64,000 bases of DNA from an uncultured Verrucomicrobiae bacterium (GCA_963818965.1 CAWFUG010000011.1:128001-192000), one strand, 5' to 3'. Counted from the stretch's first letter, positions 42,669 through 53,844 are shown. Program-made: numbers and translations. Notes: generated by a model not told the origin, from the sequence alone.

Positions 42669-42721
42669 TGGGGGCGATTGGACTCGAACCAACGAAGACC
42701 GAAGTCGAGGGATTTACAGTC
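42669..42721 (-). repeat. att direct repeat: duplicated 3' 53 nt of tRNA-Tyr
   Basis: Identical to 53763-53815. Confidence 0.95.
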
Positions 42722-42836
42722 AGTAGGAATCCAACATCCACACACACGCGCCAACACTTATCAACCTACAATACAACGGGTTATGTTTAGTCCACAGTGG
42801 TTAGTTGTTGAATAAAATTGTTTAAAATAGAGACTT

Positions 42837-42857
42837 GCTGTCCCATCTGTGTCCCAT
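42837..42857. promoter_or_regulatory. Putative integrase arm-type site
   Basis: GCTGTCCCATCTGTGTCCCAT, 20/21 identical to 53681-53701. Confidence 0.7.
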
Positions 42858-42870
42858 TGATTATGTTCCA

Positions 42871-43578
42871 TCACAGACTACCGCCACCATCCACGCAAAG
42901 AGTTTGCCCAGTGATGAACCCTGCATCCTCAGAAAGCAAAAACTCGATTGCTGCGGCCACTTCCTTGGGTTTTCCTACTCGGCCCATTGGGATGCGTGCT
43001 AGCAACTCCTTTTCTGCCTCGCTACCAGCAGGGCGGATTGCACGAAACATAACGGTTTCGATAGGACCAGGGGCTACTGCATTAACGGTAATACCTAGTG
43101 GGGCTAATTCAAGAGCCCATACGCGTGTACAACCAATGAGAGCACTTTTCGCAGCTGCGTAACTTGTCCTTCCGGGAACCCCAAAAATCGCTCTAGAGGC
43201 AAGATTGACTATGCGCCCCCAATTGCGATCCTTCATTCTACCAACCAATCCTTGGGTCATTTGAACTGCTGTACGAACATTGATATCATACAGATCTCTC
43301 AAGGAGGCAAGGTCAATGGATCCCAAAGGTTGAGGTCCGCCAGCTCCTACATTATTCACTAGGGCATCCACATGGTAGCGATCTAGAAGTAGCGCAATAA
43401 CACGCTCTGTTTCCTCTTCACTGCTCAAATCGCAAGAGAGGAATTGTCCTGGAAATACCTCTTCCGGTTCTGCGCGCGCAATTCCTATCACGTCGTAACC
43501 CACATTCGCCAGACGTTGGCTTGTAGCCAACCCAATCCCTTTTGAAGCTCCCGTGATGACAACCGTTTTCTTCCCCAT
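42871..43578 (-). CDS. SDR-family oxidoreductase
   Basis: TGASKGIG, NNVG, YAAAK, NAVAPG. Confidence 0.92.
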   Translation of the reverse strand: MGKKTVVITGASKGIGLATSQRLANVGYDVIGIARAEPEEVFPGQFLSCDLSSEEETERVIALLLDRYHVDALVNNVGAGGPQPLGSIDLASLRDLYDINVRTAVQMTQGLVGRMKDRNWGRIVNLASRAIFGVPGRTSYAAAKSALIGCTRVWALELAPLGITVNAVAPGPIETVMFRAIRPAGSEAEKELLARIPMGRVGKPKEVAAAIEFLLSEDAGFITGQTLCVDGGGSL

Positions 43579-43715
43579 ACAGCCTCTTATCCTTCTCTAT
43601 TTCCCTGATATTGCAAATCTTACATTTCTGAATGTTAAAAATGGAAGATCCTCTAATTATCCCACAGACCATGGGACACATTTAATTGGCGAAAATTCAC
43701 CTACATGCATAAAAG

Positions 43716-44441
43716 TCATGTCATGCGAAGATCAACGGCTTCAATTTTTTCTTCCACCAATTGACCTTGAAGAACCTGCACTCGATAAGCTGCACCCTGA
43801 GCATTTGCTTTGACGACCTTTTCCAACTTTCCATCCAAATAGTGCAATGCAACATGGTCATCAGCTGCAATTCCACTTGCCATGCCTTCTTTGATCATTC
43901 TGTGATAAGCTGGCCGTCTTTCAACCTCACCATCATAATGTGGGCAATGGCTACCCGACAAAAACCCCAAACATTTTAGAGGAGTTAGGAGGCCGGAAAT
44001 AGAATCTGTCACGCCTTCCTCAAACCAACATAATCCACCTGCACTGATTCCACCTAAAACAATACCCTGACTCCAGGCCTTCTTTAGGTAGACATCTAAC
44101 TTCCATTCCTTCCATAAGGCAAGCATGCTTTTGGTATTGCCTCCCCCTACGTAGATGGCATCATGCTCCAAAAGGTAAGATTCAAGATCAGCTGTTGGAG
44201 GATCAAATAAAGAAAGGTGAGACGGCTTACACTCCAATGAACCAAAGGCTCGATAGAAATCTACGATATATTTTAATGACTCACCGCTTGCCGTGGGAAT
44301 AAAGCAAATGCGGGGGCATTTGGTATGAGTTTGTTCGAGGAAATACTTCTCAATCAGTAAATTAGAAGGGATGTATGAACCGTATTTTGAAAATCCACCA
44401 CCACCTTGAATGATGATCTGCTTCTTCAATTCGTTCTCCAT
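43716..44441 (-). CDS. Peptidase E (S51) family
   Basis: IPTAS, GGGNT, GISAG, PHYD. Confidence 0.9.
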   Translation of the reverse strand: MENELKKQIIIQGGGGFSKYGSYIPSNLLIEKYFLEQTHTKCPRICFIPTASGESLKYIVDFYRAFGSLECKPSHLSLFDPPTADLESYLLEHDAIYVGGGNTKSMLALWKEWKLDVYLKKAWSQGIVLGGISAGGLCWFEEGVTDSISGLLTPLKCLGFLSGSHCPHYDGEVERRPAYHRMIKEGMASGIAADDHVALHYLDGKLEKVVKANAQGAAYRVQVLQGQLVEEKIEAVDLRMT

Positions 44442-44649
44442 TTTGTAAATTTCTCCATAACTACTTATCCCCTTTCCGAAATAGTCTAACAGGCTGCTAG
44501 AGTATTTCGTATCTCCAGATCTCTGTTGTCTCTAAAAATCTTTAGCACAGAGACTGCCCAAGGGCGCGAAAAAAGTCAACCTGTTGAATACTGCTATCCG
44601 ATTCAGTGTCCTAGCAAACGCTCCCTTCTTTTAAAAACACAGGCTTAAG

Positions 44650-44670
44650 AAGGTTCAAAAGGTTCAGAAG
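44650..44670 (+). repeat. Iteron-like tandem repeat (GGTTCAAAA)x2
   Basis: Near-identical to 48875-48895 and to the reverse complement of 52537-52557. Confidence 0.7.
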
Positions 44671-52289: not shown

Positions 52290-52296
52290 GGGTCAC

Positions 52297-53436
52297 CTAT
52301 CCTATAAAGTTTTGGTTCATTCGATCGATCACAGCATGTTTGTGGGTATCACTTAAATGAGCGTAACGTTTCACCATTACAAGAGTTTTGTGTCCCAAAA
52401 TTTCTGAAATTTCTGCTAAGGAAGCACCACTCATAGCAAGGTAGCTTGCAGCACAATGGCGGAGATCATGAAACCTAAAATTTTCTATCTGAGCTTTTTT
52501 CAATGCACTATCCCAGGCGCTCCTCAATTGAGTGGGCTTTTGAACCTTTTGAACCCTCTCTAAGTCGCACTTTTGCAAACTAAAATGAGAATGAAGTTTG
52601 TCAGAACTTTGACTACCATTTTGAGATTTTACTTTAGGGAAGAGAAGCTGAGTATCGATATGACGTCGCTTTTCTAACTGGGATAATAATTCCAAAGCCT
52701 GACCCGCAACCGGAACAGCGCGACGCTCTCCATTTTTTGTTTCCTGCAAAATGATTCTCTTCCGATTCAGATCAACGTCAGCCCAAGTCAAATTGAGGAT
52801 TTCGCTATAGCGCATGCCAGTTGAAATGGCCAGAACGACCACAGGATAAAGAGCTGGATTCGTGCTCTCCCTACAGGCTTGAAGGAGACGTTCTCTTTCA
52901 TATTCATCCAAGAACCGCACCCGTCCACGAGATTCCTTGAGTTTAGAGACCTTCCTCATCGGAGAATCTTCCAACCATCCCCATTCTTTTACTGCAATCG
53001 ACAGAGCATGACTAAGCGCACTTAGGTATCTCACAACAGTTGCGGGAGAACGTTGAGTACCGCGATACGTTACCCCACCGAGCAATTCATCTCTCTTTTC
53101 CCCGATCAACGCGGGTGAAATATCCGCCAACAAATAGCTGCCGAGATGTTCTTTCCACCATAAAAGCTGAGCGGTTTGTTTTTTTTGGCTTTTTTTCTTT
53201 TTTGGAAGGACGTCTCTAATGTACCTATCGATCAAATCCCCTAAAGTATGCTTTTTTGCCTCTGTAGTCTTGAAATGTCGCCCATCTCTGATTGCGGCTT
53301 CCGTTTGTTGCGCCCATCGTTTAGCATCAGCACTGCGAGCAAATGTCGCAGTCTCAGGAGGATGCCCCTTCAGACGAATTTTAACCCTGTATTGATCCTT
53401 ACCATCTTTAGTCTTACGCTTTTCGATTGCTGCCAT
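52297..53436 (-). CDS. Tyrosine recombinase (integrase)
   Basis: TGMR..E, FHDLRH, LGHK, RYAH catalytic residues; start set at MAAIEKR. Confidence 0.95.
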   Translation of the reverse strand: MAAIEKRKTKDGKDQYRVKIRLKGHPPETATFARSADAKRWAQQTEAAIRDGRHFKTTEAKKHTLGDLIDRYIRDVLPKKKKSQKKQTAQLLWWKEHLGSYLLADISPALIGEKRDELLGGVTYRGTQRSPATVVRYLSALSHALSIAVKEWGWLEDSPMRKVSKLKESRGRVRFLDEYERERLLQACRESTNPALYPVVVLAISTGMRYSEILNLTWADVDLNRKRIILQETKNGERRAVPVAGQALELLSQLEKRRHIDTQLLFPKVKSQNGSQSSDKLHSHFSLQKCDLERVQKVQKPTQLRSAWDSALKKAQIENFRFHDLRHCAASYLAMSGASLAEISEILGHKTLVMVKRYAHLSDTHKHAVIDRMNQNFIG

Positions 53437-53570
53437 AAGAACGCTCCAATTTTTCAAAAGCTGAAATATACGAAAGCCGCCAATATTAGACAACAAGGGA
53501 TATACATTCACCTGCATAACACAATCTAAATCATTGACTGACAACGGATATTCAGTGGTCTTAATCCGGA

Positions 53571-53591
53571 AAGGGACACTCATGGGACACT
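53571..53591. promoter_or_regulatory. Inverted arm-type site pair (GGGACAC x2)
   Basis: AAGGGACACTCATGGGACACT, reverse complement of the TGTCCC repeats. Confidence 0.55.
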
Positions 53592-53680
53592 AAAAGCAAA
53601 AATCACACGCAGAGATGGAGCAAAGCTTCACCACAGTTACTTTGCGTGAATGAGAAAAGCGTTGGAATAAGTGAAATAGT

Positions 53681-53701
53681 GCTGTCCCATCTGCGTCCCA
53701 T
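53681..53701. promoter_or_regulatory. Putative integrase arm-type site
   Basis: GCTGTCCCATCTGCGTCCCAT. Confidence 0.7.
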
Positions 53702-53762
53702 CTAGGGATTTGAAAGGGTAAAAACGAAGACGATTTTTGAGCGAGATTTTGTCTATGGAATT

Positions 53763-53844
53763 TGGGGGCGATTGGACTCGAACCAACGAAGACCGAAGTC
53801 GAGGGATTTACAGTCCCTTGCAATTGCCACTATGCGACACCCCC
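53763..53844 (-). tRNA. tRNA-Tyr(GTA), no encoded CCA
   Basis: Cloverleaf, anticodon arm AGGGA-CTGTAAA-TCCCT, long variable arm, GGTTCGAGTCC. Confidence 0.97.

Follow-up and report, generated by a model that had tools for sequence, protein, structure and literature searches.

The window analyzed here, a 64,000-nt stretch of DNA from an environmental chlamydia, carries at positions 42669-53815 (coordinates count from the window start) an island that, judging from its sequence, is apparently a discrete, intact and recently integrated element. The main new result is that relatives of this island hold packaging genes in the slot that follows their replication genes, a matching position which suggests that the island spreads by hijacking tailed phages. 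Our judgment tips slightly toward reading the island as a phage satellite resembling those of the PICI and PICMI families, with packaging that would depend on a helper. A broader proposal, to which we give somewhat less than an even chance, is that Chlamydiota carry a widespread superfamily of tRNA-integrating satellites whose sole virion-related genes would be terminase parts: the small and large subunits together (TerS+TerL), TerS, or a pair of genes termed HGG and hyp196. Satellites of this kind are known elsewhere and are unreported for Chlamydiota in the searchable literature (literature searches returned nothing on "Chlamydiae" with "phage satellite", nor on "HGGxSTG"), and little is understood of how chlamydiae exchange genes horizontally.

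An integrative element in tRNA-Tyr

The island, its attachment (att) site and its genes comprise the following features, given with strand where one applies; the tRNAs were located with ARAGORN and the att cores and 22-nt repeats with a repeat finder.

53860-53931: tRNA-Thr, adjoining tRNA-Tyr
53762-53845, minus: tRNA-Tyr(GTA), the integration target, with its functional copy directly adjoining the island's integrase end
53763-53815: integrase-proximal att core, 53 bp, within tRNA-Tyr
53680-53701, plus: second copy of the 22-nt repeat, 21/22 identical, 62 bp inside the proximal att
52297-53583, minus: tyrosine integrase (PF00589, 110.9 bits; phrog_1, 9e-68)
51141-52289, minus: rec2, contiguous with the integrase gene, 382 aa, partial tyrosine-recombinase domain plus DUF4096 helix-turn-helix (Pfam)
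50746-51027, minus: sm93, a 93-aa open reading frame (ORF) with a likely start at Met-20 (50970)
48327-50759, minus: replication protein, 810 aa, AEP (RepB'-type) primase, Cys/His cluster and DUF3987 P-loop domain (PF13148, 271.4 bits; PF16793, 53.6 bits)
46639-48330, minus: SF2 helicase, 563 aa, ResIII/Helicase_C, RadD-like (Pfam, NCBIfam; phrog_16, 1.4e-100)
46046-46636, minus: hyp196, a helical hypothetical protein of 196 aa, no family
45769-46011, minus: HGGxSTG protein (HGG), 80 aa (NF041373, 42.2 bits, cut-off 29; phrog_9231, 7.5e-7)
44795-45682, minus: ankyrin-repeat protein, cargo (Ank_2, 1e-32)
43716-44441, minus: Peptidase_S51 protein, cargo (PF03575, 7e-50)
42871-43578, minus: short-chain dehydrogenase/reductase (SDR), cargo (NF005753, 358 bits)
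42836-42857, plus: 22-nt repeat TGCTGTCCCATCTGTGTCCCAT, containing GTCCCAT twice and lying 115 bp inward of the distal att
42669-42721: distal att core, 53 bp, a displaced partial tRNA-Tyr

The two att cores are exactly identical (53/53) and lie inside an 81-nt repeat pair with a start-to-start distance of 11,094 bp, enclosing 11,041 bp with ten genes, all on the minus strand. Each core starts a single base short of the tRNA 3' end, takes in the anticodon (TAC on the plus strand, 53809-53811) and continues two bases past the loop, so that the whole anticodon loop lies within the repeat. ARAGORN and the repeat finder thus agree with the original prediction, made from the sequence, of a perfect 53-bp duplication reaching the tRNA-Tyr anticodon loop, and the ten genes follow in the order it had given. 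Within the whole 2.24-Mb assembly to which the window belongs (G000, 88% complete), these are the only two copies of the core, and G+C content is 44.4% in the island versus 47.5% in the genome. The 22-nt repeat found near both ends has the unit TGCTGTCCCATCTG(T/C)GTCCCAT; an inverted partial copy at 53573-53589 overlaps the annotated integrase start, and 5 of the 11 GTCCCAT heptamers in the window sit in the island end regions. These repeats are candidate arm-type integrase sites, which in a circularized island would flank the core.

Comparison with related genomes showed that occupancy of this site varies. A DNA search with window positions 38000-57900 against 30 relatives widely matched the tRNA pair and the right flank, and returned only short 64-73% matches to the island interior. 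The tRNA-Tyr side was compared in twelve relatives, with three contigs ending at the tRNA and so uninformative. In a member of the same genus (G001, 89% complete), the 8.5 kb following tRNA-Thr/Tyr contained no island protein and no second core, and the genome as a whole gave no primase match; five further family or order members (L202, L204, L205, L206 and L210) have no island within 16 kb of tRNA-Tyr. Other relatives carry different inserts: a 3.9-kb core-bounded remnant at tRNA-Tyr with an HGG homologue only (L201, genome G014), a core-bounded relative of 13.7 kb that has hyp196, HGG and part of a helicase (L207), and a 10-kb element with a 100% identical core and no homologous genes (L208). 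The island has been inserted at this locus rather than being fixed there, and the tRNA-Tyr site is a hotspot; with the island missing from G001 and five others, its genes are not fixed in all relatives, in keeping with the integrative element originally proposed.

The genes nearest the integrase end are those expected to govern recombination. The integrase is complete, with R, HxxR, H and Y catalytic motifs visible in the sequence; alignments of relatives begin at residue ~48-50, so the true start is likely the Met at residue 50. The neighboring rec2 matches the integrase profile at positions 40-133 of 172 only and therefore lacks the Tyr segment. Its DUF4096 match, sub-threshold in the island, exceeds the Pfam cut-off in the related loci L011, L019 and L086 (60.9, 44.9 and 50.2 bits), and the gene is kept beside the integrase in these three and in L010 and L039. 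We regard rec2 as probably a non-catalytic DNA-binding accessory of recombination and a candidate excision or regulatory factor. Truncated integrase-like genes without the Tyr segment also directly follow the integrase in L189:14483-15484, L193:3781-4656 and L187:12590-13537; such genes occur in DUF3987-type and terminase-type elements alike, often with a C-terminal DUF4096 helix-turn-helix. Only position and sequence pattern mark the product of sm93, 60-83% identical across five siblings, as a candidate DNA-binding protein of the Xis/AlpA-like kind.

The replication protein keeps its motif residues. Across 32 sequences, invariant positions include D120/D122/H148 of the AEP domain, C267/H273/H299, and K407 and D506/E507 of the P-loop domain, and the DUF3987 domain is a putative helicase. 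With catalytic and P-loop residues intact, this protein and the SF2 helicase make up a complete replicon that gives the excised circle replication functions of its own. The original prediction had called the replicon unusual, which proved overstated: AEP-DUF3987 fusions within integrated elements, with DUF3987 a predicted helicase, have been described by Kazlauskas et al. (PMC5862659), placing the replicon among known kinds, and the SF2 helicase is an optional accessory, present in L021, L039, L088 and L193 and missing from several siblings (L010, L011 and L019).

Related elements and their packaging slot

The nearest sibling, L010, occupies the same tRNA-Tyr site and has an integrase 76% and a primase 62% identical to those of the island. 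Its slot following the replication genes holds a 232-aa protein of unknown kind, a 143-aa GP3_package protein, an 86-aa ORF and a 505-aa protein. The 143-aa protein is a P22-gp3-type small terminase (GP3_package in Pfam, 32.3 bits, cut-off 29.4; phrog_3064), and the 505-aa protein a large terminase (phrog_2, 1.4e-27), with T4 gp17 as its sole sequence match in the PDB (E 0.011). An AlphaFold 2 (AF2) model of this TerL, built on a 13-row alignment (pLDDT 68.8), had as its best Foldseek matches in the PDB large terminases only, T4 gp17 (3e-14) followed by those of D6E, HK97, T7 and Sf6, and aligned with the P22 nuclease domain at TM 0.60. The sibling TerS sequence matched nothing meaningful in the PDB. 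The same slot holds a different TerS in L086 (phrog_2538, 1.5e-8) and a DUF5681 protein in L119, while the HGG proteins of L011 and L021 match phrog_9231, "terminase small subunit", as does that of the island (7.5e-7 over 41 residues). Counting the island, twelve delimited elements carried in this slot an HGG protein (seven), a TerS family (two), a DUF5681 protein (one) or nothing recognized (two). The post-replication slot is exchanged modularly between close relatives. A homologue of the metallo-beta-lactamase-fold gene flanking the island in the window lies just past the distal att of L010.

The HGG domain also turned up beside phage packaging genes. Among 50,697 phage records HGG matched three, one of them over no more than 35% of the query. 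ORF53 of Pasteurella phage Pm86, encoded immediately upstream of the annotated large terminase, is identical to HGG at 17 of 21 positions in its N-terminus (E 7e-12), and in Bacillus phage Flasso the matching gene is the first coding sequence past the annotated pac site. Residues C6, C18, C28 and H31 of HGG are invariant, a C-C-C-H set which suggests a zinc knuckle, and HGG is a candidate small-terminase-like DNA-recognition protein; a broader search recovered 18 proteins, none of them named. The idea that HGGxSTG may act in packaging, raised in the original prediction, thus gains real support from the siblings with TerS (in one case TerS+TerL) in the same slot, and more from the HGG domain heading TerS-position proteins of two phages.

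Always just upstream of HGG is hyp196, for which we found 142 homologues, all unnamed, no family in Pfam, NCBIfam, PHROGs or PADLOC, only unnamed clusters in the ESM Atlas, and no similarity to the C-terminal part of Pm86 ORF53. The two are fused as one protein in P0126 (323 aa) and at L039:14088-14951. We consider hyp196 a candidate partner of HGG in a packaging or DNA-recognition module.

Terminases are common in a wider set of chlamydial elements. In an even sample of 401 Chlamydiota genomes from 212 genera, relatives of the L010 TerL occurred in 61 genomes and 44 genera, with ~27 of them full-length and stop-free (53-100% identity). Twelve of these loci were inspected with their flanks: TerS lay directly upstream in all twelve, an integrase was present in ten and an adjacent tRNA in eight, and in five, perfect repeats of 42-58 bp marked out an element of 10.6-17.4 kb. 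Elements of 10-17 kb within tRNA boundaries, with TerS+TerL alongside integrase and replication genes and no genes for capsid, portal or tail, were seen at L010:13357-15542 and in L187, L189, L193, L194 and L198 (genomes G250, G070, G267, G286 and G204). PHROGs annotation of the 79 ORFs of the five bounded elements returned integrases, several kinds of primase and helicase, TerS, TerL, an HNH nuclease, toxin-antitoxin and transport genes, and no capsid, portal or tail family; a single "portal" line proved to be a secondary match of a NUDIX hydrolase. Elements of the DUF3987 type likewise held no structural, lysis, relaxase or secretion genes (Pfam on 92 ORFs, PHROGs on 55). This capsid-less TerS+TerL branch may be a new variant, and the genomic island PnaK_GI2 of Protochlamydia naegleriophila looks like one of its members: it is described in PMC5010888 as a genomic island only, neither as a satellite nor as part of a family, and differs from our island, which has no TerL.

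We next consider how far the primase-bearing family extends. The primase was found in 48 of the 401 genomes (41 of 212 genera), a patchy spread such as a mobile element would give, and had at least 2,395 relatives at E<=0.001 among 8,000 candidates scored. Named full-length RepB_primase+DUF3987 relatives belong to Chlamydiales and Waddliaceae, with one Magnetospirillaceae fragment. Among species-representative genomes, near-full-length primase matches were almost all to Chlamydiota, with an Acidobacteria contig (L057) covering residues 63-724, and the DUF3987 half alone matched many phyla. In IMG/VR the best matches were 41-42% identical and confined to the DUF3987 part, with no close family members. 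Outside the phylum, a 7,753-bp DUF3987 contig from the gammaproteobacterium Allochromatium warmingii (L073) has a 52-bp terminal direct repeat, as would be expected of an excised element in circular form and equally of an att-bounded island that was assembled separately.

Gene order is well kept within this family. By tblastn of the island proteins, the order integrase-rec2-sm93-primase recurs in L010, L011, L019, L039 and L086, and of 156 loci with any match, 19 have a relative of HGG downstream of the primase. Eleven relatives of 8.3-16.1 kb are bounded by 44-70 bp direct repeats derived from tRNA-Tyr, tRNA-Leu(TAA), tRNA-Met or tmRNA; at one site two units stand in tandem (L039), and at another the element is followed by a second integrase gene (L070). 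The shared core of these att-bounded Chlamydiota elements comprises an integrase, rec2, a candidate Xis/AlpA-like small protein, the AEP-primase/DUF3987 protein, a hypothetical protein and HGGxSTG. Sibling cargo includes HicB, HigBA-like, MNT/HepT and AbiEi/Eii toxin-antitoxin pairs and two restriction-modification sets, a typical satellite load that we count in favor of the satellite reading.

The cargo of the island itself is of other kinds. PADLOC, applied to the nine island proteins other than the integrase, gave only generic helicase-core and ankyrin matches, and the cargo thus includes no known defense system. The gene predicted to encode peptidase E does encode a Peptidase_S51 family member, with a score below the PepE cut-off. 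The SDR has a 90% identical (protein) paralogue on the same contig, 66 kb away (C11:237455-238159); the likeness is confined to the gene itself, which suggests that a chromosomal gene was captured or exchanged as cargo.

Comparison with known satellites

The closest precedent comes from the PICMIs of Vibrionaceae, whose satellite life has been demonstrated at the bench and in which iolg/icg is required for excision (PMC10803314). As described there, PICMIs resemble the island in having an integrase, an integrase-contiguous gene, a small gene in the AlpA/Xis-type position and a DUF3987 primase, no capsid-remodeling genes, and few remaining genes, of unknown or defense roles. That elements with the layout int-iolg-alpA-DUF3987 and no capsid-remodeling genes behave as satellites provides a precedent for reading the island in this way. 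The position of rec2 is that of iolg/icg, by analogy with which we infer a role in excision. Differences are also clear: PICMIs have about six genes and lie next to fis, whereas the island has ten genes in 11 kb and lies in tRNA-Tyr, adds an AEP domain, an SF2 helicase and the HGG/hyp196 pair, and carries an integrase-derived, DUF4096-type gene next to the integrase. Of the marks that define PICMIs, the island has DUF3987 (PF13148, 271.4 bits), has no AlpA detectable by PF05930 or PF12728, and is not adjacent to fis.

With PICIs, as surveyed with SatelliteFinder (PMC10085698), the island shares an integrase, a gene in the regulator position, a primase-replicase, a gene in the terS position, accessory genes, a size of ~10 kb and an absence of other structural or lysis genes. 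It departs from them in having no capsid-morphogenesis gene, an optional component commoner in Proteobacteria, and in that its "terS" is only an HGG-domain protein. The claim that an int-xis-pri/rep layout typifies satellites holds against both descriptions, that of PICMIs (PMC10803314) and that of PICIs (PMC10085698). In the SatelliteFinder survey, >99.9% of PICIs were in Proteobacteria or Firmicutes; the stem "Chlamydi" is not present in its main text, and its supplementary tables might list chlamydial hits.

In ecological terms the island comes closest to the tycheposons of Prochlorococcus (bioRxiv 10.1101/2020.12.28.424599). As described there, they too integrate into tRNA 3' halves with partial tRNAs, encode a tyrosine recombinase and a primase/helicase, use one backbone for packaging-gene and cargo variants, and accrete in tandem at a tRNA, comparable to L039 and L070. 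PICI-like tycheposons were reported never to carry extra cargo, whereas the island has both a packaging-like gene and cargo, a comparison of architecture alone.

Other families offer partial likenesses. The island differs from cfPICIs in having no capsid, portal, head-tail adaptors or terL of its own, and its siblings with terL have no capsid or portal. Satellite P4 and CP4-57 islands combine a P4-type integrase at a tRNA or tmRNA with a small AlpA-like gene and a large primase-helicase, and YfjI of CP4-57 is a DUF3987 protein; homologues of P4 psu, delta, sid or epsilon were not found in the island by Pfam, NCBIfam or PHROGs. Since it has no AlpA profile match, does not lie by fis, and has neither psu, delta and sid nor the cfPICI capsid set, we do not place the island in any of these families. 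As far as can be judged from the sequence, it works as they do.

A proposed life cycle and its alternatives

The sequence shows that a P4-type tyrosine integrase recombined the 53-bp core shared with the tRNA-Tyr 3' half, and that integration left a whole tRNA at the integrase end and the displaced partial copy 11.1 kb away. We propose that excision would be controlled by rec2 and sm93, as by iolg and alpA in PICMIs. An infecting tailed phage would induce the island, which would excise and replicate with its own primase and helicase; hyp196 and HGG would then mark island DNA for the helper's large terminase, and helper capsids would carry it to new cells, with the ankyrin, S51 peptidase and SDR genes as presumptive cargo. 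If this is correct, such satellites would point indirectly to tailed phages that infect obligate intracellular bacteria and would be a vehicle that moves defense systems and host-interaction genes (ankyrins) between chlamydiae sharing an amoeba, and capsid-less TerS+TerL elements would widen the known modes of satellite hijacking. Should the wider superfamily be real, undiscovered tailed phages would regularly infect chlamydiae inside eukaryotic hosts, and a complete terminase without a capsid would constitute a distinct satellite packaging strategy. Work toward genetic tools for environmental chlamydiae could also begin by exploring the att sites, integrases and replication proteins of these elements.

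Several observations weigh against the satellite reading, the first group of them concerning the island's own genes. The island has no recognized TerS or TerL, and its 80-aa HGG shares only ~40 residues with TerS candidates. Both the Pm86 and the Flasso protein bear the annotation "hypothetical", which makes their TerS role positional only. A Foldseek search of the PDB and BFVD with the AF2 model of hyp196 (pLDDT 78.8, helical) gave nothing at E<=0.001. None of 119 other hyp196 homologues carries the HGG motif and the long-read L039 assembly is rich in frameshifts, leaving the evidence from fusion thin. No Pfam family, AlpA and HTH_17 included, matched sm93 at E<=10, so the label "small DNA-binding protein" in the original prediction went beyond any family match; its analogues in L062 and L070 gave faint HTH_17 matches (E 0.0048 and 0.06). 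Terminal repeats were checked in 164 loci and found in L073 only, which is not chlamydial.

The second group concerns the helper. G000 gave no match to phrog_2 (TerL), PF05065 (HK97 capsid) or PF04860 (portal), and no helper was found to reside in this 88% complete genome. HK97-type capsid genes were found in 5 of the 401 Chlamydiota genomes and in 0 of 89 from the window's own family, and of six capsid-associated contigs examined, three with 61-70% G+C are probably mis-binned. Chlamydiae are not known to have phages other than Microviridae. Among chlamydial phages, the account in PMC5010888 cites only Chlamydiamicrovirus.

The remaining three capsid contigs (41-48% G+C) carry head modules, and their belonging to chlamydiae is uncertain. 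One locus encodes TerL, portal, capsid and adaptor (L259), another is P2-like (L261), and the HGG motif was not found in the three chlamydia-like head-module contigs. A 14.2-kb contig with 41% G+C (L263, G210:C28) encodes a replication initiator, a helicase, TerS, TerL, a probable portal and a major head protein, and might represent either a satellite that forms capsids or a phage of small size. Phage-derived genes have been noted on two chlamydial plasmids (PMC7846284). The search for relatives and helpers in chlamydial genomes, proposed as a check on the original prediction, therefore found relatives widely and no helper.

The main rival, to which we assign roughly a one-in-four standing, is a cargo replicon that needs no helper, like tycheposons of the cargo type: a plasmid-like circle spread by vesicles, transformation or amoeba co-infection, with HGG and hyp196 as regulators or as accessories of replication or partition. 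It would account for an island that has cargo and no recognized terminase in a genome without helper genes, and the constant linkage of HGG to the primase (19 of 156 loci) fits a replication or regulatory role too. Tycheposons, with a tRNA-specific integrase, primase/helicase and cargo, were reported to be vesicle-enriched (bioRxiv 10.1101/2020.12.28.424599). Against it stand close siblings with a true TerS, one of them with TerS+TerL, in the exact slot, the HGG domain in the TerS position of two phages, and an island in which no partition genes were found.

Far less probable is an integrative mobilizable element moved by the conjugative type IV secretion system (T4SS) of another element, with the primase or another protein acting at an unrecognized origin of transfer (oriT). 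The lack of phage structural genes in the island is compatible with this, as are T4SS sets on plasmids and chromosomes of some Parachlamydiaceae and Simkaniaceae (PMC7846284). However, Pfam and NCBIfam revealed no relaxase or coupling protein in the island, the coupling protein and relaxase profiles PF02534, PF03432 and PF08751 were unmatched in the 88% complete G000, and relatives bear terminases, not mobilization genes. The same profile searches gave no support to a conjugative element as the helper, which the original prediction had allowed for; its statement that the island has no structural or transfer genes held up in Pfam, NCBIfam and PHROGs. Marginally less probable again is an immobile domesticated remnant that arrived once and was kept for its cargo only, a reading that decayed relatives in G000 (contig C8, below) and G014 (L201) would favor, but which sits poorly with att copies identical at 53/53 positions, with integrase, rec2, sm93, primase, hyp196, HGG and SF2 helicase all full length relative to sibling homologues, and with the absence of the island from the same-genus G001.

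Two further insertions were seen in G000. A second island of ~11 kb at a tRNA-Met (C9:264675-275719) encodes an integrase 49% identical to that of the first and carries direct repeats of 43 bp (91% identical), with no homologue of the other island proteins, of two left-flank genes or of the sibling TerS, TerL and slot proteins queried. At C8:119839-125431, a 2.9-kb remnant lies at a tRNA-Met pair with a 47-bp repeat and fragments of an integrase and of HGG; just outside it is an ankyrin paralogue 59% identical to that of the island.

To the left of the island, ~19 kb of the window (23500-42668) is not syntenic with G001 or G014, in which conserved EpmC and dehydrogenase genes lie ~2.4-4 kb from tRNA-Tyr or its remnant. 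We considered whether this flank (23.5-42.7 kb) is an older island accretion and rejected the idea, as it consists of ordinary chlamydial genes with no mobility genes among them, including a Pom-family outer membrane protein/porin, a glycosyl hydrolase 3, a phosphoesterase and a TylF methyltransferase.

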